IMG/VR virus record: IMGVR_UViG_3300002140_000159
Location: 1 to 64,000 of that record
Length of the DNA: 64,000 nt
Origin: a virus
Strand: one strand, 5' to 3'
Position numbers and translations under genes: made by a program. Below, in pieces: positions 9,511 to 53,018 of this stretch (position 1 is its first letter; every line of letters starts with the position of its first letter). The notes under the pieces are model-generated. The model did not search any database. It was not told where the DNA came from and saw only the letters and a program-made list of their open reading frames with translations.

Positions 9511-10089
9511 ATGTCTGATATCGACAACGACAACGAGCAGCCACTTGTGCAAGACGAGCTGACCACCTTAAAGGCGCGAGCCGACATGCTAGGTGTGACA
9601 TACCACCCTGCTATTGGTTTAGAAAAACTCAAAACCAAGGTAGCCGCTGCTTTAAGCGACACCACTGAATCTCCAGCAGCTGAAGACAAAGTTGAAGCAG
9701 CTGCTTCTGAAGTTGAGACATTAAGTGCCAAACGCCTTCGTCTTAAACGTCAGGCCAATGAGTTGGTGCGGATCCGCGTGTCTTGCATGAACCCTGCTAA
9801 GTCGGAGTGGGAAGGCGAGATCTTCACCTGCGGTAACTCACTGATTGGCTCCGTCAAGAAGTTCGTACCTTTCAATGCCGAAGAAGGCTGGCATGTGCCA
9901 CGCATCATCTTTGAGCAAATGAAAGAGCGCCAGTGCCAGATCTTTGTGGCTGTGCGAGATGCACGCGGCAACACCACACGCAAAGGCAAGCTCATCAAAG
10001 AGTTTGCAATTGAAGTGATGGAGCCATTGACCAAAGATGAGTTGTATGACCTGGCTCAACGCCAAGCCATGAGCAAGTCCATCGCCTAA
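9511..10089 (+). CDS. hypothetical virion protein (N-terminal Rho_N/SAP-like helix-extended-helix)
   Basis: LKARADMLGVTYHPAIGLEKLKTKV motif; located in the head module. Confidence 0.5.
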   Translation: MSDIDNDNEQPLVQDELTTLKARADMLGVTYHPAIGLEKLKTKVAAALSDTTESPAAEDKVEAAASEVETLSAKRLRLKRQANELVRIRVSCMNPAKSEWEGEIFTCGNSLIGSVKKFVPFNAEEGWHVPRIIFEQMKERQCQIFVAVRDARGNTTRKGKLIKEFAIEVMEPLTKDELYDLAQRQAMSKSIA

Positions 10090-10114
10090 ACTTCCACCCT
10101 GCCCGGATAGACCT

Positions 10115-10783: not shown

Positions 10784-10804
10784 AGCGCAGCTAGCCAGTA
10801 CCAA

Positions 10805-10831
10805 GGGGAGCTTATCGCTCCCCTTTTTTTC
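10805..10831 (+). terminator. rho-independent terminator
   Basis: GGGGAGC-TTATC-GCTCCCC perfect 7-bp stem followed by T8. Confidence 0.75.
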
Positions 10832-10863
10832 TTCAGCTGTGCATCAGTAAGACAGGAGCGGTC

Positions 10864-21200: not shown

Positions 21201-24200
21201 ATGAGGCTTTGGAAGCCAACAAAATTAAATTCGGTGCTATGTCTCAATGGGCGGTGGTTGACCAGTACGCCATGGACGGTGGCAGCCACACAGTGACTGA
21301 GGCAGATCGCAAAGAAGCCAGCGATAACCTTAATGCTCTAAGCCCTGTTCGTGCTGCAGCTGACTTACAAGCTTTGAATGATTTTGCTCTTACGATGTTT
21401 GGGGCAGGCGCTGTAAGCACTGTGCCAGATGCGCAGCCAGCAGTTGTTCCTAAAGAAGCAACACTCACGTCGGTGTTTGGCCCACTGGGCACACCTAAGA
21501 TTGCGCCTGATGCTGACTTGGTAGAGTTCTTTGAAGCCAACCCGGAAGCCAGCTTTAAGCGAGTGCTGCAGGGGTTGTTGCGCAAGGTGAGCACGGATGG
21601 CAGCATACCAAATCCGAAGTTCAACACTATGCTGATCAAGTCATTGGTCAAGTTGGTGGATCCAGAACTCCAGGTCAAGTACATCACCAAAGACTCGCCA
21701 GGAGACTTGCCTATCAATGGGCCAGTGATGGGTGCAAGGGGTTGGTTTGCCATGAATGGCACCAAGCAAGAGATCTATGTACTGAGTCCTGAGTTTGTGG
21801 ACTCTGGCTTGACCACAGAGCTGTTGATCCATGAGCTGGTTCATGCAGCTTTAAGCAACATTGTGCAGAGCACAGACAAAGCAGTGCAGCCTTTTATTGC
21901 AGAACTTAATGAGTTGCTTAAAGCTGCACAGACCACAGTTAATGGTGATGCCAAGCTCAAAGCCAAATTTGGAGATGCAGTTACTAGCTTAGATGAGTTA
22001 CTGGCTTGGGGCATGACCAACCAGGCATTCCAAACGGAAGTGCTTGCCAAGATCAATATGCAGTCCACCACACTGGGCAAGATGGCCAATCTTCTGCAAA
22101 TCTTTGTGGCTAACTTGGCTAACATGCTGGGCTTTAAAGATGTAGCTTCTGCTAATGGCTTGGGTGTGTTGATTGCTAATGTCTCTGCTTTGTTTGAACA
22201 AGTAGCTAAGACAGTGCCAGTAGAGCGCAAGCAAGACCCGGTTAACTTGGTCATGGCAACACCTGCTGCAGATCCATCGCTGCAAGCCAAGCTCAACACT
22301 TACAGCACGTTGGATTTACACGACGCACTGAAAGACGGCAAGCTAAGTGTGAACTTTGCCAATCAAGTGCGTGGCTTGCTTAGCAACATTGTTGAAAAGC
22401 TACATGGTCCATTCGGCTCCTTTAGTGCCAGCCTAATGGAAGAGCAAGCACTGTCGGCAGAAGATGTGTACCTCAAGGCGATCAACACGGGAGAAGTCCC
22501 ATTTGCTTCGCAAATACTAGGCTCTGGCTTTGTCGTTCCTGATCAAAGCATGTTCGCCATTGAGCAAATTGAAGCCACTGTGCGAGCCACACTGGAGAGC
22601 AAAGAAGCTTACAGCACGTCAGCCTACAGAGTTTTGTACGCCTTGTACACGGAGATCAAAAACAAGATCAAGGTAGAAGACTTCCATACCGGATCCCCAT
22701 GGAGCCAAGCCACGACTGCGGAGCAGGCGGCAGCGCAGGCGCTTCATGACTTTATCTTTAAGCTTGAAAGTAACAAAGGCCAGCGATCAGATTACCTGTC
22801 TCGCTTTGCTGCTATGGGTCTGGCTCATGAGGGCTTTAACAAGTTGCTGCAAGTGGCGACAGACCGCAGTCGCACAGTCGCCTCTACCAAGAGTTTTGCT
22901 GACCGATTGCAAGCAATCTTTGAGGGCATCTTGGCTTTCTGGAACACCAAGGTTACACACACGTACAAAGGCCAGCAAGCAGATCAAAAGCTGACTATGT
23001 TAGTTGGCCAGCTGGTAGACATTGAAGCCAAGCGTCGCTATAAGTTTGCACATCCACGGACAAGCCCAGTGCTTGATGCCATTGAAGATAAATCAAAAGC
23101 AGCCGCTGATGCACTGCGCAGCAAGATATCTAAGATGGCAGGTGCCCCTGCAGTGTCAGAAAACAAGTATGCCGTTGTACGAGCAGCGGGTGCTTTGGTT
23201 CAGACCGTTGCAGATAACCGGGTTGACTACTTCATGGACAACTTGCGCACCATGCGCAACTCTGCGTTCAAAGGCAAGCTGGGTGTAATTGCATCGACAC
23301 TTGGTGAACTGCAAGGACCAGCTAAAGCTTTGCAAGCCTTGCTGCGTGCGTCCAAGTGGATGGAAGGCCACCGCAAAGACGTGATTACCAACACCGCTAC
23401 GTTTGCGCGTGCTGGTTTTGCTAACCAAGGCAAAGGCATGAGTACGGCTGCCAAGGCGGCTGTCTCTCAAGTGTTCTTGCGTTCTGGCTTGCATCACTTG
23501 GTTGGCAAGTTCAGCATGGCTGAGATTGCTGGGTTAGTCAGCAACACCAGTGAGTTAAACAAAGCCGTGGCCACGTATGAAGCCAAGCTTAGTAGCTTTG
23601 GTAATGCCACCAAATACTTCATTGAGCAAGCCAATGCCCTTGGTATTCAAATTGCCACGGGGGGTGTACGCGGTGAGTTTGAAATGATGAACGCACACAA
23701 CATTGCTAACTTGTACGGCACGGCTTACCAAGGCAAGCTGACTGCAGCGCGTACAGCTGAAGCCAAAGAAGTCATTGAAGTTCTTGTGGCTTTGTATGCG
23801 CTAGGCTACACCGCCAGTGCTGCTCGCCTGGAAGCCTCTACATTGATTGCGATAGAGAACCAGCGTACTGATGGCAACGGTGTGGAGTCTGTACTCAAGC
23901 TGCACAAGCAACTGGAGAAAGAATCTCTGGAGCGTGTCTTTAAAGGTCTGCCTGAGCTAATGGTGCACGGCTACTTGCCTGAGATTTACGACCCCAACAT
24001 TGAAGTAAAAGTGGCTAACGTTGCAGATGGTAAAGACTTGATCAACCTTGGCTACACCAAAGGTGAGCAAGTGGTGTTGGACCGGGCTGATCCAGATCGT
24101 TCTATGCGCCACATGTACGTCCGCGATGGGGGCGGTATGGGTAGACGTGTGTCAGGCATCACGTCCACAAAAAGCTTGAACAGCAAGGGTACAGAAAATC

Positions 24201-39452: not shown

Positions 39453-40394
39453 ATGTACGGTATTTCTGTCAAAAACACCAGTGGGCACATCCTCATTTCT
39501 AGTGAAGTGAACTCACTACACTTTGGCGGCAACGCTACTTTTCAGTCGACGTTGATCAGCGGGCTAACCGACTTTCCAAGCTACTCTGGGGATGATGGCG
39601 GTAACACCCTGTCTGGTAGGCATGTGCATCGTTATGCCTTTGCAAGCCAAGACCCTCCTGTATTTTTCATACAGCCAAGCAACTATGCTTTTAACCACGG
39701 GGTGCTACAACAATTCCAATCAGGAGTTTATTGGTTTGTTGATGTCATCCAAAGCGGCGACTACTCAGCACCCCCAACAGTCAAAGCATTTGTGCCACCA
39801 GCAAACCTTGCGACACCACTACCTGGTGTTGGTGTAGCAGCTTATGACAGCTTGGGCCAAGCAACATTTGACTCTCGTCTGCGGCCTTTGGCTATATCAG
39901 CTGCTGTAACAGTGTTACCTCCTACGCTTCCATGTGATGGAGGTCGTCCCACTAATCAAAGTGGTTACGCCTGGAACGACTCCAATTTAGATTTTAATTT
40001 TAGGTGTAACACCACGTCCAACAGTTACGCGTTACCTGGGCAAGTTACACAAAGTAATCTTATGTTTTCTGGCCCAGCTATTGCGCAAGCTGTTTACATA
40101 CGGCAAAAGAATGGCTACAAAAGTTCCAGCGGTAACTACAGCAGCCAAGACCACTGGTCTACAGCTTTATGGTGGGCCATGTACAACGCAGCTTATCGGG
40201 TAACAGCTACTACTTTGCACGCAGGATGGTCAGTCTATTCAGCTGGCTTTTACTTTTCCTCGACATACGAGGGCGGTGGTTTTGGCGGGGGAGGTGGGGG
40301 TGGTTCAGCTTACGGCAGTCGTCCATTCGACGATAAAACAATTAACTTGTCGAGCAATACAGTTATTGTTGCAGACGCATCGGTATATATCTAA
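39453..40394 (+). CDS. hypothetical tail-module protein (Gly-run near C-terminus)
   Basis: 313-aa ORF containing EGGGFGGGGGGGS. Confidence 0.5.
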   Translation: MYGISVKNTSGHILISSEVNSLHFGGNATFQSTLISGLTDFPSYSGDDGGNTLSGRHVHRYAFASQDPPVFFIQPSNYAFNHGVLQQFQSGVYWFVDVIQSGDYSAPPTVKAFVPPANLATPLPGVGVAAYDSLGQATFDSRLRPLAISAAVTVLPPTLPCDGGRPTNQSGYAWNDSNLDFNFRCNTTSNSYALPGQVTQSNLMFSGPAIAQAVYIRQKNGYKSSSGNYSSQDHWSTALWWAMYNAAYRVTATTLHAGWSVYSAGFYFSSTYEGGGFGGGGGGGSAYGSRPFDDKTINLSSNTVIVADASVYI

Positions 40395-41596
40395 TGAGTC
40401 ACGCTTCTAAAGAAATTGTGTATGTTAATAGCGGTGCTATATATAAAGCTCCGTCTCATAGCGAGTTACAGAATAACTATAGACCAAGCAATAAAGCAGA
40501 TCCCATTTTTCAATTCGAAAAATCAGATGGAAAGAAGTATCTATTTACCTCAGAATTTAAAAGATTTTTTAGTGATACAGATACTGACGGCACATCTTTA
40601 CTGGGCATTGATTTATGCCCTGCTGTTAATTTATGGATTTGCTTAGGAGCTGTTACCTCTAATGAGCGAAGCAACTATGATATTTTCTTTGCTGCAGAGT
40701 CTACGGAGCAACTAAGAAAGGTAGCTGAGTATTACGGTCTGCCATACCCTATATCTACGGAAATTGGTGAGCAGCTTAATGCCGCACCGGAAACAATGTG
40801 CTTTTGGAACGCTGGTGGTTTACCTGTAGTACCTGGGGGTATTAAGTTTATTGACGGTAAGCCCGCGTTGCTCAAGTTGTACACCTATCCCAAAGTCAAT
40901 GGCAGCTGGGATGTGTACATGTATGGAGCAGCCTATTACGCACAGGGTAAGTGCTATGAACGTGGCGCAGTGTATGAGATGTGTACAGGTGGTAAAGACC
41001 TTGATCTGCCTAATGTCCAGATGCGGGGTAGTTTAAGTTACCGCAAAGCTGAAATGATCCAAAGTGAGCGTTTTGATGGCGCTATCACTCACTACAGCTA
41101 CACGCGTAACACCGATCCTGCGATGTTTTGGCAGGGTAATGAGCTGAGCGCTGATGGACTTACACAGCGCACTAAACAGTTTGAAACCAGTATGTGGTTG
41201 CAAATAGCAATTGCCAAACAAAAAAGAGGGGTAGATCTTTCTGATCGGAACCTATGCCCAGATGTGAAATTCTGGCTTGGTCGGTCCTGGTATGAAGGTG
41301 AGGACGGGGAAGAACTGCTATTTGCAGTAACTGGTGGCACAGCAATGCTTGAGGCTGTGGCAGCGTATTACGCTTTACCTGTACCTTACAACAAAGAACA
41401 GGCCCACATTTTAGATACTAAACCTGAGCTTTACCGAGCACGGCATTACGATTTACTTGGCCAAGGGCTTGGTGAATACATTAATGTTGTGGTGGCTAGC
41501 GTCATATTTAAGTGTGGAAAGCCGGAAAAGCTTATCCTGTACACATTTCTCCGTCAATGGGAGTTTGACGAAGAAATCAATTTGCCTATGTTTTAG
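40394..41596 (+). CDS. hypothetical protein with internal two-fold duplication
   Basis: DLCPAVNLW...IFFAAESTEQLRKVAEYYGLPYP...APE repeats as NLCPDVKFW...LLFAVTGGTAMLEAVAAYYALPVPY...KPE. The 5' end is AT-rich. Confidence 0.55.
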   Translation: MSHASKEIVYVNSGAIYKAPSHSELQNNYRPSNKADPIFQFEKSDGKKYLFTSEFKRFFSDTDTDGTSLLGIDLCPAVNLWICLGAVTSNERSNYDIFFAAESTEQLRKVAEYYGLPYPISTEIGEQLNAAPETMCFWNAGGLPVVPGGIKFIDGKPALLKLYTYPKVNGSWDVYMYGAAYYAQGKCYERGAVYEMCTGGKDLDLPNVQMRGSLSYRKAEMIQSERFDGAITHYSYTRNTDPAMFWQGNELSADGLTQRTKQFETSMWLQIAIAKQKRGVDLSDRNLCPDVKFWLGRSWYEGEDGEELLFAVTGGTAMLEAVAAYYALPVPYNKEQAHILDTKPELYRARHYDLLGQGLGEYINVVVASVIFKCGKPEKLILYTFLRQWEFDEEINLPMF

Positions 41597-41718
41597 TTTA
41601 ATAGGATATGTAATAATGCCAATAGTCTTCGGATGACTGACTTTTGCAGGAACCTCCGATCTGATTGCCTTCTGACCTTTAATTGCAAAGGTTAACAAGT
41701 TACTCGGAGTTCCTGCGC

Positions 41719-42048
41719 ATGGCTGAAAAAATTAAACTGGTTCAAGGCGACACACGCCCATATATTAATGTCACTCTGCGCGATGCAGACGGGACTGCTA
41801 TAGACGTGTCTGAAGCAACAGTTAACTTTAAATTCCGTCAAAGCGGATCCGACATTACTCTGTTCACTGTTATCTGTCTGCAACCAGATGGCGGTACAGA
41901 CGGCAAGATTATTTTTAATTTCCCCGAAGGTGGTTTGAACGTGGATTCTGGCAACTATGAGGGCGAGATTGAAATCGTCTTCGCGCCTGACGATATACAG
42001 ACCGTTTATGAGCACCTAAAGTTTTATGTGCGCGAACAATTCAACTAA
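41719..42048 (+). CDS. small Ig-like (BppU_N-like) tail-associated protein
   Basis: MAEKIKLVQGDTRPYINVTLRDADGTAIDVSEATV. The start is moved to the ATG with a GGAG RBS; the ORF-track start is 41683. Confidence 0.5.
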   Translation: MAEKIKLVQGDTRPYINVTLRDADGTAIDVSEATVNFKFRQSGSDITLFTVICLQPDGGTDGKIIFNFPEGGLNVDSGNYEGEIEIVFAPDDIQTVYEHLKFYVREQFN

Positions 42049-42064
42049 ATGCTAGGAGTTCTTT

Positions 42065-42502
42065 ATGGCTGCAATGTCTAACTATCTTGAGAATGAAATC
42101 ATCGACCAGGTATTTCGTGGGCAGGCTTACGCCTTCCCCGCAACGCTACACGTTGGCCTGTTCTCTGCTGCTCCCAGTGAAGTGGGTGGCGGCACAGAGC
42201 TGTCAGGAAACAACTACTCACGTACTCCAGTAGCTGCTTCGCTTCCTAACTGGGCTGGCACGCAAGCTGCAGCTAGTTCAACAACATCCACGGGCACCAC
42301 AGGAACTACGTCTAACAACGTGGCAATTACCTTCCCAACGCCCTCGGCTTTCTGGGGCCAGGTCAATGCGTTTGGTATTTTTGATTCAGCCTCTGGTGGC
42401 AACTTGATGTTCTACGGTGTTTTATCAATCGCCAAGACGATCAACCAAGGCGACACCGTGACGTTCCCTGCTGCTTCCCTGTCGATTCAAATCGACAACT
42501 AA
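42065..42502 (+). CDS. hypothetical tail protein
   Basis: 145-aa ORF in the tail operon. Confidence 0.5.
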   Translation: MAAMSNYLENEIIDQVFRGQAYAFPATLHVGLFSAAPSEVGGGTELSGNNYSRTPVAASLPNWAGTQAAASSTTSTGTTGTTSNNVAITFPTPSAFWGQVNAFGIFDSASGGNLMFYGVLSIAKTINQGDTVTFPAASLSIQIDN

Positions 42503-42505
42503 GCC

Positions 42506-43720
42506 ATGGCGTCTAGCTCTGCCATTGGAGGGATGACGCTTAATGCTTCGCCGCTTAATGAAAAAGCGCCGAGCATTAGCTCCCTTGGGGCAGCGCTACA
42601 TGTTGCCTCTGTTAGCACAGCGACACTGGCTACAAGCTACATTCTTGAAGCCAGTATTCAAAGTACTTCTGTTGCTCAAGGCAGCGTAGACAAAACTTCT
42701 CCGCTTGCTGTTAACGCTGCAGCTCAGAGCAAGTCCACCGCTGGTATCAATGTTGATTACATAGTTGCAAGCGATGTGCAAAGCAATGTTATTGCTACTT
42801 CTAATCTTGCTCGTATTGTTATTCTGCAGTCCGGCTGGTCTACAGCCGCAGTTAACACAAGTCCATTAGGTAGCGCAACGCTTCATAGTGGTGATGCTGG
42901 TGTTGTCAGTGCCGATTCCACAGCTAACGCCACACTAAGTGTTTGGAACGCTTTAGAAGCTTTTGCAAAAGTAGAGTCTTGGGCTTTTGGCGCGTTGTTC
43001 AGCACAATACCTTTAGCAGATCTGGCTGGAACAAGTGCAATCAGCAATGTTGTTGCTGCCAATCTGGCTATTGAGGCTCCACTAGCAGGCCAGGTTGATG
43101 TAATTGCTGTCAGCACAGCAAGTACTTCAGTTATCTTCAGGCTGGGTGCTGTCGCTTTGGTAGATAGCCAATCAAGCGGTACCGTCGTACTGCAATCCCC
43201 ATTGCAAGGTCAGCTGACTACACAGTCTGAGCTGGCAGGCAACATCACGCTGGTGTCTCCTATCGGTAGCGAAATTGTGGTGACTTCAGCGTCTTCTGCT
43301 GGCTTGGTGAACACCATCCCAATGGATGCGGTGATTCACACAATCAGCCGCAGTAACGGCGCAGTAAAGGTGGACTACGTTGTCTCAGGCAATGTCGTCA
43401 CCTTGGTGTCTATGGGAGGAGGTTTAACAAACACTATTCCTATTGACGGTGTACCAGGCACAGGAACAGTCGCAAGTAGTGAGGGTGGCATTGTGCTGCG
43501 CATACCTTTTGATGCTGCTGCGCAAGGCGTTGTAAGCACCGCAGCCAAAGTCCGGAAATTTCACACCAATCCTTTTGACACTATCCGACCTACAGGCGCT
43601 GATGTGCTGCCTTATAGGATTGCCGCCGAGTTAAGTACAACAACCGGCGTCTACGTGAATAGGGCGATAACTGCAGAAGTCACATTAATCCAACCAACTT
43701 TGTATAAACGCGTCGCATAA
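42506..43720 (+). CDS. Ser/Ala/Thr/Val-rich fibre- or spike-like structural protein
   Basis: 404 aa of repetitive beta-rich composition with repeated ...LVNTIPMD.../...LTNTIPID... segments. Confidence 0.5.
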   Translation: MASSSAIGGMTLNASPLNEKAPSISSLGAALHVASVSTATLATSYILEASIQSTSVAQGSVDKTSPLAVNAAAQSKSTAGINVDYIVASDVQSNVIATSNLARIVILQSGWSTAAVNTSPLGSATLHSGDAGVVSADSTANATLSVWNALEAFAKVESWAFGALFSTIPLADLAGTSAISNVVAANLAIEAPLAGQVDVIAVSTASTSVIFRLGAVALVDSQSSGTVVLQSPLQGQLTTQSELAGNITLVSPIGSEIVVTSASSAGLVNTIPMDAVIHTISRSNGAVKVDYVVSGNVVTLVSMGGGLTNTIPIDGVPGTGTVASSEGGIVLRIPFDAAAQGVVSTAAKVRKFHTNPFDTIRPTGADVLPYRIAAELSTTTGVYVNRAITAEVTLIQPTLYKRVA

Positions 43721-43729
43721 GGAGAAACC

Positions 43730-44755
43730 ATGAGCATTAAATTTAGCAACAACGCATCCGCCACGCTGGCAGCTGGGGTAGCCGCATCGGCAGTGTCTTT
43801 GACGTTGACCTCTGGTCAGGGGTCTTTGTTTCCAGCTCTGGCTGCAGGAGATATTTCTTACGCTACGTTAGCCAACACAGCTAACCAGTTGGAGATTGTC
43901 AGAGTAACTGCCCGATCAGGCGATGTTTTGACGGTTGTGCGTGCGCAAGAAAACACCTTGGCTATTGCATTTACCGCTGGCGATAAAGTTGAACTGCGGG
44001 TCACTGCTGCAGGACTGAAAACAATTCAGGACGAGGCTGCTGCTGCAGACTCGGCATTAAAAACAACTGTAGATTCGCGCAATGTTTCTACTGGAACAGG
44101 TCTGCAAGGTGGGGGAAACCTTTCTGCAAACCGCACATTGAGTATTGCAAATACAGCAGTGACTGCAGGTGCTTTTGGCTCAGCCTCAGCGATACCCACT
44201 TTCACTGTGAACCAGCAAGGTCAGTTGACTGCAGCAGGGACTGTGGCTTTGGACTTGTCTGTCAAAGTTAGCAAATCCGGTGACTCAATGAGCGGCAACT
44301 TGACCATGACTGATGGTGCGAACGTTGTATCTTCACAAGGTGGGGACAACGCCAGAAGCACTGGCTTCAAGATGGCAGACGGCCAGGACCTCGGTGAGAT
44401 GAACCGGAGCAACCAATACATTGATAACCGAGTGAACAACTGCAATGGGTACATCAACGCAGGCAACTGCGCAGGCGACTTGCAGTACGCGCCGCCTAAC
44501 GGCAACTGGTGGGAGTGGTATTCGGGCAAGTCGCCTCAAGGTGCATGGGCCAACAGTGGCTCATACGACGGTGCTGGCGGCACAACGTACTCATACAACG
44601 CTGTAAGCGTCGGCTTGAACTACGCGGCTTATGGCTTGAGTGCTGATGAAATTGGCGGCTCTGAGTACACAAGGACGTACACCAACTGCAACTGCGGTGC
44701 ATTCAACTGTCGTACCAATTGCAACTGTAATTGCAACTGCAACTGCGGCAAATAA
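43730..44755 (+). CDS. tail fibre protein ending in an (Asn-Cys)n peptide
   Basis: Common phage-fibre N-terminal domain (SGQGSLFP...YATLANTANQLEIVRVTARSGDVLTVVRAQENT). C-terminus is TNCNCGAFNCRTNCNCNCNCNCGK. Confidence 0.7.
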   Translation: MSIKFSNNASATLAAGVAASAVSLTLTSGQGSLFPALAAGDISYATLANTANQLEIVRVTARSGDVLTVVRAQENTLAIAFTAGDKVELRVTAAGLKTIQDEAAAADSALKTTVDSRNVSTGTGLQGGGNLSANRTLSIANTAVTAGAFGSASAIPTFTVNQQGQLTAAGTVALDLSVKVSKSGDSMSGNLTMTDGANVVSSQGGDNARSTGFKMADGQDLGEMNRSNQYIDNRVNNCNGYINAGNCAGDLQYAPPNGNWWEWYSGKSPQGAWANSGSYDGAGGTTYSYNAVSVGLNYAAYGLSADEIGGSEYTRTYTNCNCGAFNCRTNCNCNCNCNCGK

Positions 44756-44766
44756 AAGGACTTTCA

Positions 44767-45666
44767 ATGAAAAAAATCAAATTTACTGCCGCTGTCTTTG
44801 CACATACAGGTCCGATACCAGCAAATCATGTGGTTCGTTTAGAAGTTATCAACGAAGTTTTGGTGGCTCGCTACTTTTGCGCACAGCCAGCCGAGTTACA
44901 TGATGGTCTTGATGTCCATCTAAGTCTGCCTGCCTTTGACCCAATGACAACGCCTTTGTTGCGCCAGATCATAAAAAATGGGCCTTACATTGCAGGCGAG
45001 GCGGTAACTAACGAACCAACACTTCAAGGTCGCGTGTTTCGTGAGACAGGAAGGCACATTTTTCGCGCTCCGCTGCGCGCTAATACAGTGTTGGGTCATT
45101 GGGAGCGCCAAGACTTTTCCGCTTTTGCTTTTCCGTTTGATGCGGCATTGAATGTCTCTGAGCCTTACAACCATTTTGTAGATAGCGTGTCTGTCAAAGG
45201 CGAAATTGGGCGCAACAGTAAACTGCGTAACGCGCAGACGTTGTTCCTAATGTACGTTGATGAAGCCGATGCTTCTATTAACCAGTGGACGCTGTGTTAC
45301 ATTACTTCGCCCATGTTTTTGCTAGAAGACACCACGCAAGGAGAGTGGGAAGTTGCACCGGCTGGCCTTAACTACTCCGCCTTGCTGCCTCAAGTAAGTT
45401 TGAGCGCGCCAGCCAATGTAGCTCCAGATGGCTGGGCTACAGTCAACGTAACACTAAACCGCGATAACACGCCACTGGCTTACGATGGTGAGATGGTAAT
45501 TGAAGCGGTCAGTGGCTACTTGCCTAAGCAGCGCTTACAAGTGCACAACGGCACAGCGTCTTTTAGAGCTATGGCGTTGGGTCTTCAAAGTGGCGACGCT
45601 TTACGAGTCAAAGTAGGCACTCGCCTGATTTCAGGGATGGCTTCGGTATCTATTGAAGTGGCGTGA
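44767..45666 (+). CDS. hypothetical protein with C-terminal Ig-like (Big-like) domain
   Basis: ATG at 44767 with an AAAGGA RBS. The ORF-track start at 44731 is a TTG inside the fibre gene. The C-terminus has a beta-sandwich-like pattern. Confidence 0.5.
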   Translation: MKKIKFTAAVFAHTGPIPANHVVRLEVINEVLVARYFCAQPAELHDGLDVHLSLPAFDPMTTPLLRQIIKNGPYIAGEAVTNEPTLQGRVFRETGRHIFRAPLRANTVLGHWERQDFSAFAFPFDAALNVSEPYNHFVDSVSVKGEIGRNSKLRNAQTLFLMYVDEADASINQWTLCYITSPMFLLEDTTQGEWEVAPAGLNYSALLPQVSLSAPANVAPDGWATVNVTLNRDNTPLAYDGEMVIEAVSGYLPKQRLQVHNGTASFRAMALGLQSGDALRVKVGTRLISGMASVSIEVA

Positions 45667-46511
45667 ACTTGATGCGCTTTACTGAACTGAGTCGGCAGTT
45701 TGATTTGGAGCGTGCCGCTTTGCAGGTGCGCTCCCCAATTGAGCCAGGAGACGTTGTTCGGGTAGTACTTCCTGTTAGCAGCCAAGCACTAGCTGATGCA
45801 GCTACAGCAGCGCAAGCTGCTTACCCGCTGGGTCAGTTTGCTTCTGTGAGTGGGCAACAAAGCCGTGCTTATTATGAAAGCATCTCTTTGGCGTTCAACC
45901 CCGACTCAGCTATTGAACCTTTGCACAGCACGTTGGGTTCTGCTGCGTTAACTCCAGCAGAGCATTACTACGCTACGCCCGCTACCTTGGTAAAAATAGG
46001 GTCGTTGCGCGATTCCTACTACGACACCTACGGGTTTCGTTTGCCTACTACAGCAGCAAGTAAGGAGTTAGCGTTGCTGACTTCAAAGCTTAAACGCAGT
46101 TTGGTGCGCTCGCGCATGTCGGTGATGCGTGCAGGCAGTGCTACAACTTCCGGGTTGTATTGGGGTTGGCACAAAGATGAGAGCGTGTTTGAAAACCTGC
46201 GAATCAACATTCATGTGACAGACTCGCCTGATCACCGGATACAGGTTATGCGGGAAGACCGCAAGCCAGCGTCTATGGATGACCCTGCTTTGACTGACCA
46301 CCGCTTTGAAGTGGGTTATGGCTATTCATGGGATACCCATTTACCGCACAGAGCTTGTTCTGTTGGTGTGCCAAAGCAAGACCGCACTGCCATTGTTCTG
46401 GGGGTTTCTCCTTGGTTTGACTACGACGCCCAAGCTGATGCTTGGACGCCTAATGAATTTTTTGGACGTAAGCATCCATTTGCAATGCTGCGCGATGGAG
46501 ATGTGCTGTGA
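45663..46511 (+). CDS. cupin / 2OG-Fe(II) oxygenase-like protein
   Basis: WHKDES...LRINIHV ... LPHRACS ... DRTAIVL gives an HxD...H facial-triad arrangement. The start overlaps the previous stop (GTGA). Confidence 0.5.
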   Translation: MNLMRFTELSRQFDLERAALQVRSPIEPGDVVRVVLPVSSQALADAATAAQAAYPLGQFASVSGQQSRAYYESISLAFNPDSAIEPLHSTLGSAALTPAEHYYATPATLVKIGSLRDSYYDTYGFRLPTTAASKELALLTSKLKRSLVRSRMSVMRAGSATTSGLYWGWHKDESVFENLRINIHVTDSPDHRIQVMREDRKPASMDDPALTDHRFEVGYGYSWDTHLPHRACSVGVPKQDRTAIVLGVSPWFDYDAQADAWTPNEFFGRKHPFAMLRDGDVL

Positions 46512-47236
46512 ACGAGTGGCCTTTGCAACTTGCTAAACATCAAGGTCGGTTTGACGACTTGATTTTTTCGCCTCTTGATTTACCTGCTCCTCCTGAAATA
46601 GACGCAGGGCGTTTTGTGCAGTGGATGCAGCTAGGTCAACAGCCTGAGACTTCTTTGCCGCGTGTGGCGTTTGAAAACTTAACTGGGCAGAGCTACCCTT
46701 GGCTGCTGCGTTCCTTAATCGGAGATTTGTCCGCTTTGGCTGAGGCTTTTCCTGAAGTACACCGTTATTTGTTGTGCTTTCCGTTCAAGCAAGTAAAGTC
46801 GCTGACTTTCTTGGCACAGCATGGGACGCAGGAGGTGTTTACACACACAGACTCTGATGACTTGTACGGAATGCGGTTTTATTTGACTGTCAAGAATTCA
46901 GAAGGTCTGCATTTTTTCAAAGCCAAAGAACGCTACGACCATTTTCCTACCTATGCACGCAGTGCAGAAGGGGTGCTTCAGCGAGCGGATTGGGACAAGC
47001 ACTTCTGGATGAGCCAGCCAATGTACGCCACACTTCCTGCAGGATGTCGCACCTTTGTTTTGAATAACTCTAGAGCGGCGCACGCGGTAGCTGCCAATAC
47101 TTGTGTGCTGGGTGAACGCATTGCCGTGTTGGTACGCGGCGAATTTGATACGCAAGCCCGTGATGCGCTGTTAGCCCGGTCTGTGGCAAAACACGCAGCC
47201 CATGCTTTGTGGTTTGACCAGCCGGTGGGGGATTAA
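46508..47236 (+). CDS. Asp/Asn beta-hydroxylase-like cupin oxygenase, paralogue 1
   Basis: VFTHTDSDDLYGMRFYLTV ... FVLNNSRAAHAV ... ERIAVLV. Confidence 0.55.
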   Translation: MNEWPLQLAKHQGRFDDLIFSPLDLPAPPEIDAGRFVQWMQLGQQPETSLPRVAFENLTGQSYPWLLRSLIGDLSALAEAFPEVHRYLLCFPFKQVKSLTFLAQHGTQEVFTHTDSDDLYGMRFYLTVKNSEGLHFFKAKERYDHFPTYARSAEGVLQRADWDKHFWMSQPMYATLPAGCRTFVLNNSRAAHAVAANTCVLGERIAVLVRGEFDTQARDALLARSVAKHAAHALWFDQPVGD

Positions 47237-47241
47237 ATCTT

Positions 47242-47964
47242 ATGACTGAATGGCCTTACAAGTTGGCTCAGCACGCAGGTCGCTACGACGATTTGATCTA
47301 TTGCCCGCTGGACCTGCCTTTGCCACCAACAGTAGACGTGCCGCAGTTTTTGGAGTGGATGGCAAGCGTGCAAGACCCGCAAATGCTGACTACCAAAAAT
47401 TCCTACGAGCAGGCAAAAAAACTTCCGTACCCATGGCTATCGCGTTTTTTGAAAGACGCAATGCAACTTAAAGAAGCTTTTCCTGAGCTTTACGACTATC
47501 TGTTGTTGTATCCGTTTGATGCCCTGACATCTCTGATGTTTTTGGCGCAGAAAGGACACCAGGATGTTTTTACGCACTGTGATCCTGATGGTCTGTACTG
47601 TATGCGGCTGTACTTGACAGTCAAAAATTGCGAAGGGCTGCACTTTTTTAAAGCTCGCCAGCCTTTTGATCACTTTTCGACTTACTCGCGTAACGAAGCA
47701 GGCGACATTGTCAGTGCTGACTGGGATAAGTACTTTAAAACAGATGAGCCGACATACGCCCATCTGCCTAAGCCGACACGAGCATACGTACTTAATAGCG
47801 CCAGGGCTGCACATGCTGTGGACCGCAACACTTGCGAGTTGGGTGAGCGTATTTGTGTGCTTGTTTTTGGAACAGCCAACGTCCAGCGACGGGACGCTTT
47901 GATTGAGCGCTCGCTCAAGCTTTACAGCAAAAACGCTATTTGGTACGACAAGGATCTGTCATGA
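47242..47964 (+). CDS. Asp/Asn beta-hydroxylase-like cupin oxygenase, paralogue 2
   Basis: VFTHCDPDGLYCMRLYLTV ... YVLNSARAAHAV ... ERICVLV. It is clearly alignable with the previous ORF along its whole length. Confidence 0.55.
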   Translation: MTEWPYKLAQHAGRYDDLIYCPLDLPLPPTVDVPQFLEWMASVQDPQMLTTKNSYEQAKKLPYPWLSRFLKDAMQLKEAFPELYDYLLLYPFDALTSLMFLAQKGHQDVFTHCDPDGLYCMRLYLTVKNCEGLHFFKARQPFDHFSTYSRNEAGDIVSADWDKYFKTDEPTYAHLPKPTRAYVLNSARAAHAVDRNTCELGERICVLVFGTANVQRRDALIERSLKLYSKNAIWYDKDLS

Positions 47965-48716
47965 AGCTAACTGTTTGCTTGAAAATGTTTGTGGCTGTAC
48001 CACTGCTGCCGTTCTTTATTGTGTGGGCGCTGTGGGGCGTTTCTGAGTGGCCATTGGTAGTTGCAGCAGGCATCTTGTTGTACTACCCAATACAGCAACT
48101 TGGACAGGCTAATGGTTATCACAAGCTGTTTGCGCACAGAGCATTTATTGCAAGGTCTTGGTATCCGTATGTGGCTTGTTTTTTTAGCTCAATTGCTTTT
48201 TATGGTGATCCATTAAGTGCAGCCATGATTCACAGAATCCACCACAGGTACGCAGACACTAGCAAAGACCCGCACTCACCATCACACGGTCGTTTACACG
48301 CCTACATTGGATGGATGGCTTCATACAAGCCAAACACTTCTGACGCAAGGTGCATTACTGACTTGCTGCGGGACTACCCCTGGATGATTACGTTTCGCAG
48401 GTATGAGTGGATGTTGCCTTGGGTTTTCCACGCGTCGCTGTTTGCCGTTTCACCACTTGTAAGCTGCGCGGTGTTGATTGGCTGCTTGCTGTCTATCCAC
48501 AACGCTTTAATAGTTAATGCGTTTTCACACAACCCAAGCCTTGGTAGCGAAGACAAGGCGGTTAATTCTTTGTGGATGGCACGTTGGGTAAACCCAACCT
48601 TTTTGCATAAGCACCATCACACACATGGCAGCGCTGTTGATTATTCGGCTCAAGGTGTCACGGACTACTGGGCCAAGTTTATAAATCGTTTTATTGCCTT
48701 ACCTAGTACTAAATAA
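47961..48716 (+). CDS. membrane His-box di-iron enzyme, delta-9 acyl desaturase-like
   Basis: GYHKLFAHRAF, HRIHHRYADTSKDPHSP and HKHHHTHG boxes with hydrophobic helices. The ATG at 47961 overlaps the previous stop (ATGA). Confidence 0.7.
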   Translation: MKLTVCLKMFVAVPLLPFFIVWALWGVSEWPLVVAAGILLYYPIQQLGQANGYHKLFAHRAFIARSWYPYVACFFSSIAFYGDPLSAAMIHRIHHRYADTSKDPHSPSHGRLHAYIGWMASYKPNTSDARCITDLLRDYPWMITFRRYEWMLPWVFHASLFAVSPLVSCAVLIGCLLSIHNALIVNAFSHNPSLGSEDKAVNSLWMARWVNPTFLHKHHHTHGSAVDYSAQGVTDYWAKFINRFIALPSTK

Positions 48717-48728
48717 AGTGGTTTCACC

Positions 48729-49460
48729 ATGATGCTTAATTTCAATCTCCGAATGGACAACAAACGAACCACAGCGCTGTACTACGTTGGGCTTGTTGGT
48801 GCTTTGTTTGCTGTCTCTGACGCTAGCCTTGGTTTGGCTTTAACCGCCTTGTGCGTCCATGTGGTTGTCATCTCATTGTTCTCTGCTGTTGTTCACCGCT
48901 ACTTTTGCCACAGGGCGTATGAAGCTAATCCAACACTGATGTGGCTTGTTGCGTTTCTACCAGTTGCCTATGGCTATTCAACACCTGCTGGCTGGGCGGC
49001 ATTGCACTCAGCACACCATGCGTTTGCCGACACAGACAAAGACACCCACCTGAAAGGATGGGCTGGCTTGTTTACTGCTAACTACCGTTTGCCACCATTC
49101 AAGTTTGCTCTTGCTGGCAAGTGGTTTCACAGCACTCGACATGCTTTCCTGCACAGTAATGCGCTTGGGGTTGTGCTTGTTTGGCACTTGCTCTTGCTGT
49201 TTATATCTGTCGATGTTTTCCTGTGGGTCGGCATGATGCCGCTGTTTACACTTCATTTTTGCAATGGACTGCACCGTGTGTTTAGTCACAAAGGAGCACA
49301 AGCTCACAACCGTTGGTACTTAGAGTACGTATGCCCAATGGGTGGCGAGTGGATACATGACGAGCATCACGACACTGCTAAAAAGCCAGTCTTCTCAAAT
49401 CGTTGGTACGAGGTAGACACTGGTTCAATATTTGTACGACTGTTTAGGACTGCGTCATGA
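48729..49460 (+). CDS. second His-box di-iron desaturase/hydroxylase-like membrane protein
   Basis: HRYFCHRAY, HSAHHAFADTDKDTH and IHDEHHD boxes with several TM helices. Confidence 0.65.
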   Translation: MMLNFNLRMDNKRTTALYYVGLVGALFAVSDASLGLALTALCVHVVVISLFSAVVHRYFCHRAYEANPTLMWLVAFLPVAYGYSTPAGWAALHSAHHAFADTDKDTHLKGWAGLFTANYRLPPFKFALAGKWFHSTRHAFLHSNALGVVLVWHLLLLFISVDVFLWVGMMPLFTLHFCNGLHRVFSHKGAQAHNRWYLEYVCPMGGEWIHDEHHDTAKKPVFSNRWYEVDTGSIFVRLFRTAS

Positions 49461-50149
49461 TTCGAGCAGAAGTTGCAGGAGTAGACACAGCCAACTACAT
49501 TTTTGACACTGGTCTAACGTTTGGCGTGGACTTGGGCCATGAAGTGCTTGAACTGGCCATGACCAAGATTGACTTGTTTCCAAAGCGACACAATTACAAC
49601 CGTGGGGACAGTCCAAAAGAGTTGATAAAAATGATTGGCGCAAACAAAGCGCGAGAACTCTACAGGCGTACAGCTCAGATGAAAGCGCTTTGCGGTAGTG
49701 AACTCATTACATTTGACCAGCACTTTTTCCCAGATGCACTTAGCCAACAACTTATTGAGTCTGCACCGCAGTGGTTGCAAGACCTCTCTGTTGGCGACCC
49801 GTCCACGATGCTACAGGTATCAAGCAATGGCAACTACCTTGGCACCCACAAAGGACATAAGCGCAGAGCATCTATGTTTATGTTGCTGCAAGGCGGTGGG
49901 CAAGAAACTAGGTGGTATCGGAATAGAGAAGAGTTTGAGGTCATTGACCCATTGCGAATTCCAGATCACGACAAAATTGAACACGTTGTGACTGCAATCA
50001 TGGAGCCGTGGCGCTGGTATGTATTTAACCATTTTGAATGGCATTCAGTACATAACTTTGCTGCTCAAAGCATTCGTGTCAACATGGGGCTTGATTTCAA
50101 CAATGTAACAGCCGCCGACATTGTTAAGCAGTTAGTTAAACGAGGTTAA
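49457..50149 (+). CDS. Asp/Asn beta-hydroxylase-like cupin protein (H-x-G variant)
   Basis: LGTHKGHKRRASMFMLLQG ... WYVFNHFEWHSVHN ... IRVNMGL. The start overlaps the previous stop. Confidence 0.45.
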   Translation: MIRAEVAGVDTANYIFDTGLTFGVDLGHEVLELAMTKIDLFPKRHNYNRGDSPKELIKMIGANKARELYRRTAQMKALCGSELITFDQHFFPDALSQQLIESAPQWLQDLSVGDPSTMLQVSSNGNYLGTHKGHKRRASMFMLLQGGGQETRWYRNREEFEVIDPLRIPDHDKIEHVVTAIMEPWRWYVFNHFEWHSVHNFAAQSIRVNMGLDFNNVTAADIVKQLVKRG

Positions 50150-50731
50150 TTTATTGCGTTCAACAGCTTGATTTAATGATACGTCGAATGGTAAAACAGC
50201 CAGCATCAATAAAACCTCGGTTCTTACAGGCTGCTGTCCCAGTACACGTTGGTTAATTAATGTGTAACGAGATAAGCAATGTTGAGGAATTATTTCAGGC
50301 ACGCTAACTTGGTATAGGTTGAATCTGCCTAAGCGAGCTTGAACAATATGGTTTTTCCAGCGAGGGTTATTAGCCCGGACAGAATAAAAACCAGTATATC
50401 CAAGAGATTCCATGTAAGTTACAGCTGCATCAAAAGCTGGCCCTAGCCCGGATAGCCTACCTGAAAAAACACTTCCGGTGGGGCGATTACAGATCATAAC
50501 TAAGGTGGATAACGGAGCATCCGGCCAAGGCCAGAAAGTAACAAAAGCAACAAGTGTGTCTTTATTGTCAAAAGCACCAAAGCAAATACAGCCAGTATTA
50601 AGGTTTTGAGAAAAAGCCTGCGCATACGGAATAGCGTCAGGAAGTTTAGGAGATAACATTATTAAAGGCTGAGAATCAAATACTGATTGCACAGCTATAG
50701 CGTCATTTAATGTCAAGAGGCGTGTTTTCAT
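50132..50731 (-). CDS. GNAT-like acyl/acetyltransferase
   Basis: An R-x-x-G-x-G motif (GRLSGLG) in a roughly 200-aa alpha/beta ORF. It is AT-rich, on the opposite strand, and its end overlaps the previous gene by 18 nt. Confidence 0.4.
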   Translation of the reverse strand: MKTRLLTLNDAIAVQSVFDSQPLIMLSPKLPDAIPYAQAFSQNLNTGCICFGAFDNKDTLVAFVTFWPWPDAPLSTLVMICNRPTGSVFSGRLSGLGPAFDAAVTYMESLGYTGFYSVRANNPRWKNHIVQARLGRFNLYQVSVPEIIPQHCLSRYTLINQRVLGQQPVRTEVLLMLAVLPFDVSLNQAVERNKLTSFN

Positions 50732-50779
50732 ACGTTATTATTTTATATGCAATAGAATATTGGTATTGCTTATAAAATA

Positions 50780-52159
50780 ATGCAATATTTTAAACATAGG
50801 CAATTAATGACTCAATTTAGAATTAAAACTCAAGCGCCAGATGGTACTGAGCCAATATTGCTATACGACAATCAGACTAGTAGCCTGACTTGGGAAAATG
50901 GACAGTCTGTTATTCCTGTACAGCCGCGTGAATATAAAACTGCAACTGCGGTATCGGCTGATGCGCCTGGATTAAAGAGTGTCATCAAAACACTCAAAGT
51001 CAGCTTGGGATTGTCTTGCAACTACGAATGCAACTATTGCTCGCAGCGCTTTGTGCCTCACGCTGATTCCAGCAACCCTGGAGACATTGAGCCTTTTGTA
51101 GCGCAGCTTACAGGGGCGTTGTCCCAAGCGCCAGACTGCATCGAGTTCTGGGGCGGTGAGCCATTTGTTTACTGGAAAACACTAAAACCTCTGGCTGAAC
51201 GCTTGCGCAAGATGTACCCAGAGACAATCTTTAGCGTCATCACTAACGGCACACTGCTTGATAAAGAAAAAAACCAGTGGCTTGATGATCTTGGTTTTGC
51301 TGTCGGTATTAGTCATGACGGACCTGGCTACCATGCACGCGGTCTTGATCCAATGGATGACCCAGAAAAACGCGCTGCCATCATGGATTTATACGACCGT
51401 CTAAAGCCAAAAGGACGCATCAGCATTAACGCCATGATGCACAGAGACAATCCAAGTCGCGCTGCAGTACAGGACTGGCTGCAGGAGCGCTTTGGCGACG
51501 ATGTGATGATTGGCGAGGGGGCGTTTATTGACCCGTATGACGAGGGTGGCTTGGCAGCAACGCTGAAGACCCAAGCTGAGCAGATTGGCTACCGCGCTAC
51601 TGCCTTTGATGAAATACGTACTGGCAAGATTGGTAATTTCGATATTGCACATCAGAAAATCAAGGGCTTTTTAGATTCAGTAAAGACCGCACGCCCCGCA
51701 AGCAACCTTGGCCAAAAGTGCGGCATGGACAAGGAAGACAACATGGCCGTAGACCTGCATGGCAATGTCATTACTTGTCAAAACGTGAGCGCCGCCTCAA
51801 CTGGGCCCAACGGTGAAAGTCATTTGATTGGCAAGCTTGATGACCTGGCTGGCGTAAAGATGAAGACCGCTACCCACTGGAGCAAGCGCGACGAATGTAC
51901 GAGTTGTCCAGTGCTGCAACTTTGTCACGGTTCCTGCATGTTCTTGCACGGTCCATTGTGGGACGCTGGCTGTGACGCTAGCTACTCAGACAACATCCCA
52001 TTCTTTGCTGCTGGCCTGGAGTATTTGACGGGCTGTAAGCCGATCTATATCGAAGGTGAATTCAGAGAGTCTCGCAAAGACATCTTTGGTCTGGTCAATG
52101 GAATACCGGAAGCGCCTCCCAAAAAGAAGCCTTTCCCAATTCCGGTTGTATCAATCTAA
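50780..52159 (+). CDS. radical SAM / SPASM-domain maturase
   Basis: CNYECNYC is the CxxxCxxC cluster (C80, C84, C87). The full SPASM pattern is C-x13-G-x4-C (KCGMDKEDNMAVDLHGNVITC) plus C-x2-C-x5-C-x3-C (CTSCPVLQLCHGSC). The start may be 50807. Confidence 0.85.
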   Translation: MQYFKHRQLMTQFRIKTQAPDGTEPILLYDNQTSSLTWENGQSVIPVQPREYKTATAVSADAPGLKSVIKTLKVSLGLSCNYECNYCSQRFVPHADSSNPGDIEPFVAQLTGALSQAPDCIEFWGGEPFVYWKTLKPLAERLRKMYPETIFSVITNGTLLDKEKNQWLDDLGFAVGISHDGPGYHARGLDPMDDPEKRAAIMDLYDRLKPKGRISINAMMHRDNPSRAAVQDWLQERFGDDVMIGEGAFIDPYDEGGLAATLKTQAEQIGYRATAFDEIRTGKIGNFDIAHQKIKGFLDSVKTARPASNLGQKCGMDKEDNMAVDLHGNVITCQNVSAASTGPNGESHLIGKLDDLAGVKMKTATHWSKRDECTSCPVLQLCHGSCMFLHGPLWDAGCDASYSDNIPFFAAGLEYLTGCKPIYIEGEFRESRKDIFGLVNGIPEAPPKKKPFPIPVVSI

Positions 52160-52189
52160 GTCAACTCACTTTTTATAGCTAGGGCCATC

Positions 52190-52588
52190 ATGGACAGCTT
52201 TTTTATGTCTGCATTGGTTTTTATTCACTTGATGATGCCTATGGCAGCGCAAGCACAAGTTGTTATGAAAACCCCGCTGAGCTACTCACTAACTGAGTAT
52301 GGGGTGGTCTTAGCTACTGCTCTGTTGGGGGGGCTAGCGAATTGGTACACCAAAGCCAAGAATGATCCGACTGGTAGTTACAGCGCTGCTGCACTAATTG
52401 GTGAGCTATGCGTGTCCGCCTTTGCAGGCGTCATTGCATTTTGGCTGTGTGAGTACTTTGAAATGCAACCTTTATTGACTGCAGCTGCGGTTGGTATGGC
52501 GGGTCACGCTGGCGCTAGGGGCTTGGATTGGCTTGAGCGGTATTTGCGCAAATCTGCTGAACAGAAACTAGGCTTAACCAAGGAGTAA
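52190..52588 (+). CDS. putative holin
   Basis: Multi-TM small protein directly upstream of the endolysin gene. The start codon is uncertain. Confidence 0.5.
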   Translation: MDSFFMSALVFIHLMMPMAAQAQVVMKTPLSYSLTEYGVVLATALLGGLANWYTKAKNDPTGSYSAAALIGELCVSAFAGVIAFWLCEYFEMQPLLTAAAVGMAGHAGARGLDWLERYLRKSAEQKLGLTKE

Positions 52589-52592
52589 CTTA

Positions 52593-53018
52593 ATGAACCT
52601 TGAACTTACCAAACAACTGCGTCGTGATGAAGACGACGTGTTGTCTGCGTACACAGACTCACTGGGCTACTTAACTATTGGTGTGGGGCGTTTGATTGAC
52701 AAGCGCAAAGGTGGTGGCATCTCTGCGGAAGAGTCTGCTTATTTGTTGGCTAACGATATACGCAACAAAACAGCAGCAGTCATTAAGGCATTGCCTTGGG
52801 CTGAGCATTTAGATCCAGCTCGCTTAGGCGTACTGGTGAACATGGCCTTCCAGCTAGGCATTACTGGTTTGCTTGGGTTTAAAACGACTTTAGCTCTAGT
52901 ACAAGGTGGAAATTACGACCGCGCTGCTGAGGCCATGGATGATTCATTGTGGTCCAGGCAAACACCAGCACGCTGTGCTCGCTTACAAAAGCAGATGCGA
53001 ACTGGGGTGTGGCAATGA
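52593..53018 (+). CDS. endolysin, GH24 (T4-lysozyme-like)
   Basis: RRDEDDVLSAYTDSLGYLTIGVGR contains the E...D...T catalytic arrangement. Confidence 0.85.
   Translation: MNLELTKQLRRDEDDVLSAYTDSLGYLTIGVGRLIDKRKGGGISAEESAYLLANDIRNKTAAVIKALPWAEHLDPARLGVLVNMAFQLGITGLLGFKTTLALVQGGNYDRAAEAMDDSLWSRQTPARCARLQKQMRTGVWQ

Follow-up and report, generated by a model that had tools for sequence, protein, structure and literature searches.

We analyzed a 64,000-nucleotide stretch of viral DNA (positions 1 to 64,000 of IMG/VR record IMGVR_UViG_3300002140_000159; hereafter, the window) and found that a tail fibre gene at 43730-44755 encodes a protein ending in a run of Asn-Cys dipeptides. This tail is the signature of a family of phage proteins, and it is accompanied, in nearly every locus, by a downstream gene for an enzyme of the radical S-adenosylmethionine (radical-SAM)/SPASM class, which in the window lies at 50780-52159. 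The comparative evidence suggests, with a probability of about 0.6, that the (Asn-Cys)n tail is a 'core peptide' at the fibre tip that is modified by the co-encoded enzyme, most likely by thioether formation. We favoured the tail as the enzyme's substrate because this reading best accommodates the motif, its position, the enzyme class, a linkage that holds from either side and the fact that the tail is what the partner proteins share. The system is best read as one that would work like a ranthipeptide or sactipeptide pathway, i.e., radical-SAM/SPASM maturation of the kind found in peptides that are made by ribosomes and altered after translation (RiPPs), applied to the tip of a phage fibre. 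The features of the window described below between 43730 and 52159 are on the plus strand unless stated otherwise.

The (Asn-Cys) tail and the fibre that carries it

The fibre protein has 341 amino acids, and its tail, NCNCGAFNCRTNCNCNCNCNC, is encoded by nucleotides 44684-44746 (N319-C339) and followed by Gly-Lys and the stop codon; residues 318-341 read TNCNCGAFNCRTNCNCNCNCNCGK. A first-pass annotation, made from the sequence alone, had described eight N-C dipeptides within the last 24 residues, two more about 80 residues upstream and an imperfect hexamer repeat with mixed codons, and our analysis bore out this description. The two upstream dipeptides are found in an internal segment, NNCNGYINAGNC (residues 236-247, 44435-44470), which contains the only two Cys outside the tail, each preceded by Asn, and Asn therefore precedes 10 out of 10 Cys of the protein. 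At the DNA level, Tandem Repeats Finder detected an array at 44716-44746 with a period of 6, 5.2 copies and 80% matches, in which AAC is mixed with AAT and TGC with TGT. With the frequencies of the family that shares this tail (N 12%, C 6%; hereafter, the NC-tail family), about 0.17 NC dipeptides are expected by chance per 23 positions, and the estimated probability of finding eight or more is about 1e-11; a chance origin of the tail is excluded.

A search with the C-terminal 161 amino acids retrieved 208 metagenomic proteins, mostly of 175-250 amino acids and with 35-92% identity. When 120 homologues were inspected, all the complete sequences ended in NCNCG[AS]FNC[RK]TNCNCNC(xC)n, and in a 99-sequence alignment N144, C145, N146, C147, G148, N151, C152, N155, C156, C158 and C160 were invariant. 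Synonymous codon use differs by lineage, being TGT-rich in loci L007 and L064 and TGC-rich in the window. Since the N and C positions are invariant despite these different codons, purifying selection acts on the tail peptide, and the earlier suggestion of selection on the peptide rather than slippage is thus strongly supported. Among 214 non-redundant tails, the (xC)n run has 3-10 units, with N at 63% of the x positions, A at 22%, D at 10% and Q at 2%, and at the first three x positions 88-99% of the tails have Asn. The run ends no more than 8 residues from the C-terminus in 207 of them, and the other 7 have an extra C-terminal domain after the run, a Hint (intein-like) domain in most. Outside the tail, 255 of the 273 Cys in the family (93%) are preceded by Asn, against an Asn background of 12%.

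A HMMER scan of 1.84 billion representatives placed the bipartite tip-domain family in 64 clusters at 50% identity. An extension of 38-224 amino acids after the run was observed in 13 of the 50 run-bearing cluster representatives, and was about 160-224 amino acids long in 12 of these. In about ten of the 13 clusters it is Hint-like (intein/Hedgehog-like) and starts with Cys, and Pfam Hom_end_hint was matched above the cut-off in gp028 of Achromobacter phage JWF, L072, P0153 and P0185. In two clusters (P0155 and P0157), and also in L026, the run is followed by an unassigned 'GKIICTELYE' domain of about 160 amino acids. Examples of a run with a C-terminal extension are L162:5844-7295 (JWF gp028), L072:1705-2796, L073:8968-9909, P0153, P0159, P0173 and P0185, and the run-Hint junction of JWF gp028 reads ...RQNCNCDCNCNCSC|FPAGTMVLMADG... 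The predicted placement of the Hint domain implies that autoproteolytic or thioester chemistry would take place right at the end of the run. Should the Hint domain cut at its first Cys, processing would leave the run as the C-terminus of the mature protein; in the window protein, which has no Hint domain and stops two residues past the run, it already has this place. These relatives, with their predicted auto-processing, recall the self-cleaving fibre and spike domains of the endosialidase type and the Hint domains of Hedgehog and bacterial intein-like (BIL) proteins; the window protein differs from those systems in ending after the run.

The designation of the window gene as a tail fibre, also made in the first-pass annotation, was substantiated. 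About 200 N-terminal amino acids of the protein resemble tail-fibre PHROGs (phrog_8469, 3.8e-31), with about 55% identity to Ralstonia GP4-like podophage fibres over residues 1-101 and about 48% identity to Burkholderia Bcep22-like podophage fibres over residues 1-117. Two genes upstream, at 42065-42502, is a gene whose product matched Pfam Gp80 (GP4 fiber I) with 2.1e-40. By its N-terminus and gene position, the window protein can be assigned to the podovirus tail fibres of the GP4 gp75/Bcep22 type. Residues 1-138 (43730-44143) form the N-terminal virion-attachment (adaptor) domain of this type, which lies outside the mobile cassette described below, and residues 139-317 (44144-44680) form the C-terminal tip domain of the NC-tail family, with PPNGNWW.W and DEIGG among its invariant residues. 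When the fibre was compared with cultured phages by tblastn, the matches were confined to the N-terminal third, with none beyond about residue 200; megablast with positions 40000-53000 of the window gave no match to a cultured relative, and the C-terminal part matched no family in Pfam or NCBIfam. The AlphaFold2 model of the tip domain had a predicted local distance difference test (pLDDT) score of 69.6, with a beta-hairpin ahead of the tail, and a Foldseek search of the PDB with this model found no fold match. The tail itself scored below 50 and is predicted to be flexible.

The radical-SAM/SPASM enzyme and its linkage to the tail

The enzyme encoded at 50780-52159 has 459 amino acids and is peptide-maturase-like, with a CNYxCxYC cluster motif and a 7-Cys SPASM domain. 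The former is CNYECNYC at residues 80-87 (CX3CX2C), and its C80, C84 and C87, as well as the SPASM residues C314, C333, C373, C376, C382, C386 and C398, are invariant in 15 representatives. The protein matched Pfam PF04055 (Radical_SAM) with 36.4 bits (cut-off 29.5, 7.5e-9) and the NCBIfam SPASM model TIGR04085 with 32.9 bits (cut-off 27), and from these features its class, a peptide-modifying radical-SAM/SPASM enzyme, can be considered secure. The best-scoring named family was the PapB ranthipeptide maturase (NF047865, 3.2e-16), aligned over its full length (70-387 against 3-317 of 330), followed by the geopeptide, anSME and QhpD-type models, the last of these (TIGR03906, 7e-11) far below its cut-off. 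An NxxcB-named NCBIfam model was not found among the best 25 of the 51 matches of the enzyme. The nearest solved structures were 8vpo, CteB (5wgg) and anSME. In L004:3895-5824, the radical-SAM gene consists of two consecutive 322-amino-acid open reading frames (ORFs), one of which resembles residues 138-457 of the window enzyme with 85% identity; a duplicated gene, a disrupted one or an error of assembly could account for this.

The linkage between tail and enzyme was counted in both directions. The forward count included 76 loci with a tailed ORF, the window among them, and the enzyme gene was found 0.9-6 kb downstream, on the same strand, in all 68 loci with enough downstream DNA; the contigs of the 8 loci lacking the enzyme end less than 1.7 kb downstream. 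For the reverse count, an enzyme profile retrieved at least 579 relatives from IMG/VR, the best 80 loci were taken, and an (xC)n-tailed ORF was seen upstream in 61 of the 64 whose upstream sequence spans 3 kb or more. The same profile retrieved 209 relatives from the species genomes of GTDB, where a tailed ORF was found upstream in 52 of 53 bacterial-genome enzyme loci. The database search for such tails and their gene neighbourhoods, proposed in the first-pass annotation as a check, thus found the tail kept in more than 200 homologues and the enzyme in 68 out of 68 loci that extend far enough downstream. Of the three functions that had been offered there for the tail, comparative genomics, with this near-perfect two-way linkage, supports its role as a substrate motif of the SPASM enzyme encoded nearby.

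The partner proteins fall into at least seven pre-tail domain classes that are not linked by BLAST and range from 84 to 704 amino acids. Because these classes are unrelated, the tail is the common denominator of the partners. Small paralogue triplets of 89-167 amino acids, in which every member has an NC-rich (xC)n run at its end, were observed upstream of the radical-SAM gene in L133:5561-6485, L152:5371-6542, L155:5700-6580 and L160:5720-6575, and these might form a heterotrimeric tip where three tails meet. In L229 (Paraburkholderia sp. BCC1886) and L237 (Polynucleobacter sp.), Cys-rich ORFs of 139 and 156 amino acids end 19-54 bp before the radical-SAM gene. These small proteins contain several NC/xC clusters (...NCNCACTYNC...NCNCDC...), and g2, the gene usually found directly downstream of the tail gene, is missing between them and the enzyme gene; this layout is the most RiPP-precursor-like of those seen.

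Proposed chemistry and alternative explanations

In the proposed mechanism, the enzyme would modify the tail post-translationally in the cytoplasm of the host. A tail Cys thiol would bind an auxiliary Fe-S cluster of the SPASM domain, and the 5'-deoxyadenosyl radical would take a hydrogen from the neighbouring acceptor, which would be Asn, or Ala, Asp or Gln in the distal repeats. A C-S bond would then form, and the cycle would be repeated along the run, generating a ladder of redox-insensitive covalent staples, within or between chains, that would stabilise the distal end of the trimeric fibre. The product of g2 (44767-45666) would be an obligatory partner, possibly as chaperone or presenter, and the variable oxygenase-like genes or a second radical-SAM gene would probably add further modifications. 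A thioether is the most likely product because Cys defines the substrate, because the characterised SPASM enzymes with Cys-rich repeats (PapB, CteB, NxxcB and QhpD) make thioethers, and because the tolerated x residues (N, A, D and Q) are the acceptor residues of NxxcB. A plausible rationale is that virions are assembled in a reducing cytoplasm, where disulfides are impossible, so that a radical-SAM enzyme could install links independent of redox state. The fully specified version, in which the SPASM maturase installs a ladder of Cys-Asn (or Cys-x) thioethers on the phage's own fibre tip, possibly linking the three chains, is proposed tentatively, at somewhat below even odds.

Several known systems offer points of comparison. 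NxxcB forms a Cys-Asn beta-thioether on NxxC, as the first-pass annotation had stated, and accepts Asn, Ala, Gln and Asp, and TqqB provides a precedent for a cross-link between adjacent residues (PMC9389541). Compared by description, the streptococcal radical-SAM RiPP (RaS-RiPP) pair NxxcB/NxxcA resembles the phage system in pairing a radical-SAM/SPASM enzyme with a substrate, or candidate substrate, in which Asn and Cys recur, and its acceptor tolerance matches the x residues of the phage tails. NCNC formally contains NxxC, yet the conserved phage unit is the N-C dipeptide, with a period of 2 and a Cys at every second residue; moreover, the phage substrate is the C-terminus of a 341-amino-acid virion fibre and not a short quorum-regulated peptide, and the system is found in phages of Proteobacteria. 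The links made by PapB join Cys to Asp/Glu within CX3D motifs (PMC12373016). The ranthipeptide maturases PapB (freyrasin) and CteB (SCIFF) are, respectively, the best-scoring named family and a PDB neighbour of the phage enzyme, and both make iterative thioethers on repeated Cys motifs; the phage cassette differs in having no short precursor. With the sacti- and ranthipeptide systems in general, it shares the radical-SAM core, the 7-Cys SPASM domain and an adjacent Cys-repeat candidate substrate, but it has no short leader-core precursor that is cleaved and exported, and no protease or transporter.

Two further comparisons concern retained structural proteins. QhpD is a radical-SAM/SPASM enzyme that forms Cys-to-Asp/Glu thioethers in a retained structural subunit in aerobic Proteobacteria, and the phage system differs from QhpD/QhpC (the gamma subunit of quinohemoprotein amine dehydrogenase) in substrate and context. 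In the needle of T4 gp37, HxH motifs coordinate iron along the trimer axis. There, too, the residues of the motif alternate and the motif lies distally on a trimeric phage fibre, but it uses His instead of Cys, has no modifying enzyme and shows no sequence similarity to the NC tail.

A number of observations weigh against the tail as substrate of a thioether-forming enzyme. The window enzyme fails the equivalog cut-off of the PapB model by a wide margin (59.5 against 340 bits). Among solved structures the nearest, 8vpo, is that of a cyclopropylglycine synthase (PMC10878394), so that the reaction type is unreadable from similarity. The cassette contains no recognisable RiPP recognition element, protease or exporter, and the proposed substrate is a structural protein of 341 amino acids, not a short peptide. 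Three of the 64 IMG/VR loci were exceptions to the linkage, with no tailed ORF upstream in L085 and degenerate runs in L134 and L141, and in a co-evolution test the pairwise identities of tip domain and enzyme correlated weakly (rho 0.28). Finally, CxC runs are also typical of metal-thiolate clusters, for which the CxC clusters of metallothioneins are the precedent.

This last point leads to an unlikely but serious alternative, in which the tail is a metal-binding module, with the three (xC)n strands of the trimer holding a metal-thiolate cluster (Zn, Cu(I), Fe or Fe-S) and the radical-SAM enzyme acting elsewhere or being merely accessory. In an extended strand, the alternating xC pattern lines up every thiol on the same side, and N, A and D at x are small residues; the paralogue triplets, which end in NCNCNC, would also fit three tails meeting in a heterotrimer. 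The near-obligate linkage to a SPASM peptide maturase would be left unexplained, as would the Asn at nearly all of the first three x positions and before 93% of the non-tail Cys, and the cassette has no metal chaperone or transporter.

The tail could also be an unmodified structural element, e.g., a disulfide ladder formed after lysis, linked to the enzyme by shared inheritance while the enzyme modifies the g2 product, another virion protein or a host molecule; we consider this a little less probable again. It would agree with the weak correlation between tip-domain and enzyme identities, and with a linkage of g2 that is as tight as that of the tail protein (62 of 65 cassettes). The g2 product, though, has no conserved Cys or repeat motif, with Gly as its only invariant residues, and in L229 and L237 the Cys-rich protein appears to abut the enzyme gene with no gene between. 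A linkage that spans at least seven unrelated pre-tail classes and several morphotypes is, in addition, hard to credit to hitch-hiking alone.

The genetic logic of the cassette is that of a RiPP cluster, and some partners are small proteins of about 90-160 amino acids directly upstream of the enzyme, features that would suit a fibre-like protein serving as a long-leader RiPP precursor, whose modified tail of 20-25 residues is cleaved and freed as a toxin, signal or anti-defence factor instead of being kept on the virion. This appears improbable: the cassettes share no conserved protease or exporter, the window tail is fused to a genuine virion-attachment domain, the gene is always within tail modules, beside fibre, gpJ or T7-fibre genes, and the Hint variants imply processing after the tail and not before it. 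Recent, functionless slippage of the AACTGC hexamer, which the period-6 array might suggest, was rejected, as over 200 homologues, with identities as low as about 35%, keep the motif unchanged while using different synonymous codons, and in the proximal part, NCNCGxFNCxTNC, the sequence departs from a pure repeat.

If the tail is indeed the substrate of the radical-SAM/SPASM enzyme, the finding would link RiPP enzymology with phage receptor-binding proteins, two fields that rarely meet, and a viral structural protein would, for the first time, be seen to undergo post-translational modification by a radical-SAM enzyme. The maturation of the fibre would be covalent and comparable in principle to the cross-links of the HK97 capsid, but achieved by radical chemistry. 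It would also define a new class of SPASM substrates, large folded proteins with an (NC)n core that is sometimes released by Hint, with a very regular new motif of N-C at period 2, which could double as a portable stapling tag for protein engineering. Moreover, it would explain the 'anaerobic sulfatase maturase' and 'radical SAM domain protein' genes that many phages from fresh water and soil have in their tail modules.

Cassette composition, mobility and carriers

In the homologue contigs, the gene order is the tail protein, a g2 of 230-320 amino acids, variable accessory genes and a radical-SAM protein of 450-480 amino acids, the last with 38-90% identity to the window enzyme. Tallied over 65 complete cassettes, a 2-oxoglutarate (2OG) oxygenase of the PF13759 type is present in 32, a protein with the HxD...H...R motif, as in the window, in 22, and a second, short radical-SAM protein in 8. 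This second protein, of about 300 amino acids, was observed at the oxygenase-like gene position, about 900 bp after the tail gene, in L020, L027, L029-L031, L040, L041, L047 and L078, and it matched Pfam PF04055 at L020:10404-11300.

In the window, g2 directly follows the fibre gene and encodes a 299-amino-acid, all-beta, immunoglobulin (Ig)-like sandwich protein. Its AlphaFold2 model had a pLDDT of 85.6, the structure matches were generic Ig-like with a template modelling (TM) score of about 0.2, and there were weak Big_1 hits; it is possibly a chaperone, an adaptor or a tip partner. Next is a 282-amino-acid accessory protein (45663-46511) with an HxD...H...R motif (invariant H170, D172, H229 and R241), oxygenase-like by this motif only. 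As PF13759-type 2OG oxygenases occupy the equivalent position elsewhere, it was considered as a member of that group, and homology was unsupported (hhalign probability 0.3%).

The window has an extended version of the cassette, with extra genes at 46508-50731 that are also present in L009-L011 and in part in L025 and L051. These include two paralogues of 242 and 240 amino acids (46508-47236 and 47242-47964), 53% identical to each other and with no hit in Pfam or NCBIfam; the 242-amino-acid one also showed no profile similarity. Two membrane His-box desaturase-like proteins (47940-48716 and 48729-49460) matched an NCBIfam DesA-family desaturase with 1.5e-11 and 0.0031, both far below the cut-off. 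The remaining two, neither with a family hit, are a 230-amino-acid protein (49457-50149), whose L009 homologue is 93% identical, and, on the minus strand, a 199-amino-acid protein (50132-50731) conserved in L009-L011, L025 and L051.

The phages that carry the cassette are T7-like, lambda-like or GP4-like or belong to the Ackermannviridae, and freshwater Burkholderiales have it in prophages. L007 and L008 are T7-like contigs (T7 tail fibre, gp14 and terminase), L003 and L009 are lambda-like (gpJ, DUF1833 and NlpC/P60), and L005 is a temperate contig with an integrase. The enzyme relatives in GTDB are mostly from freshwater Burkholderiales (Limnohabitans, Polaromonas, Rhodoferax and Polynucleobacter), isolates included. 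A cassette of about 8 kb is common to the window, a GP4-like podovirus (43730-52159), and the lambda-like siphovirus contigs L009-L011 (L009:1236-8556), with 81-95% amino acid identity over the eight genes downstream of the fibre (56-87% for the two 240-amino-acid paralogues). Between the fibres of the window and L009, similarity begins only at residue 139, with 85% identity over residues 139-325, and this places a recombination junction inside the fibre gene, at about residue 139. The sequence comparison thus points to a clear case of a receptor-binding module exchanged between morphotypes, with the cassette moving as a unit.

Cultured carriers surfaced only through the enzyme search. Achromobacter phage JWF encodes gp028 (the tailed fibre with Hint), gp029 and gp030 (the enzyme), and Ralstonia phage RSP15 encodes ORF048 (...NTNCQCGN), ORF047, ORF046 and ORF045 (the enzyme); Achromobacter phage 2-1, with an enzyme homologue of 49% identity, was counted as a carrier on the enzyme alone. 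Since these three cultured phages carry the cassette, the proposed modification is directly testable. Our literature searches found no description of the (Asn-Cys) tail or of the cassette, which is apparently widespread and undescribed. The first-pass annotation knew of no described phage fibre with such a tail; the tail does exist in deposited cultured phages (JWF gp028), but no paper describing it was found.

Elsewhere in the window, a holin-lysozyme cassette is found downstream of the gene cluster, and a 3530-amino-acid ORF with no Pfam hit (15218-25810) presumably encodes the giant virion protein that Bcep22/GP4-like podophages typically have. In L002, a phage-like contig bearing the cassette, positions 9717-11953, just downstream of the lysis genes, contain a pair formed by a CD-NTase (cGAS/DncV-like nucleotidyltransferase; SMODS) and a patatin, resembling a cyclic oligonucleotide-based anti-phage signalling system (CBASS), together with a type I restriction HsdR.

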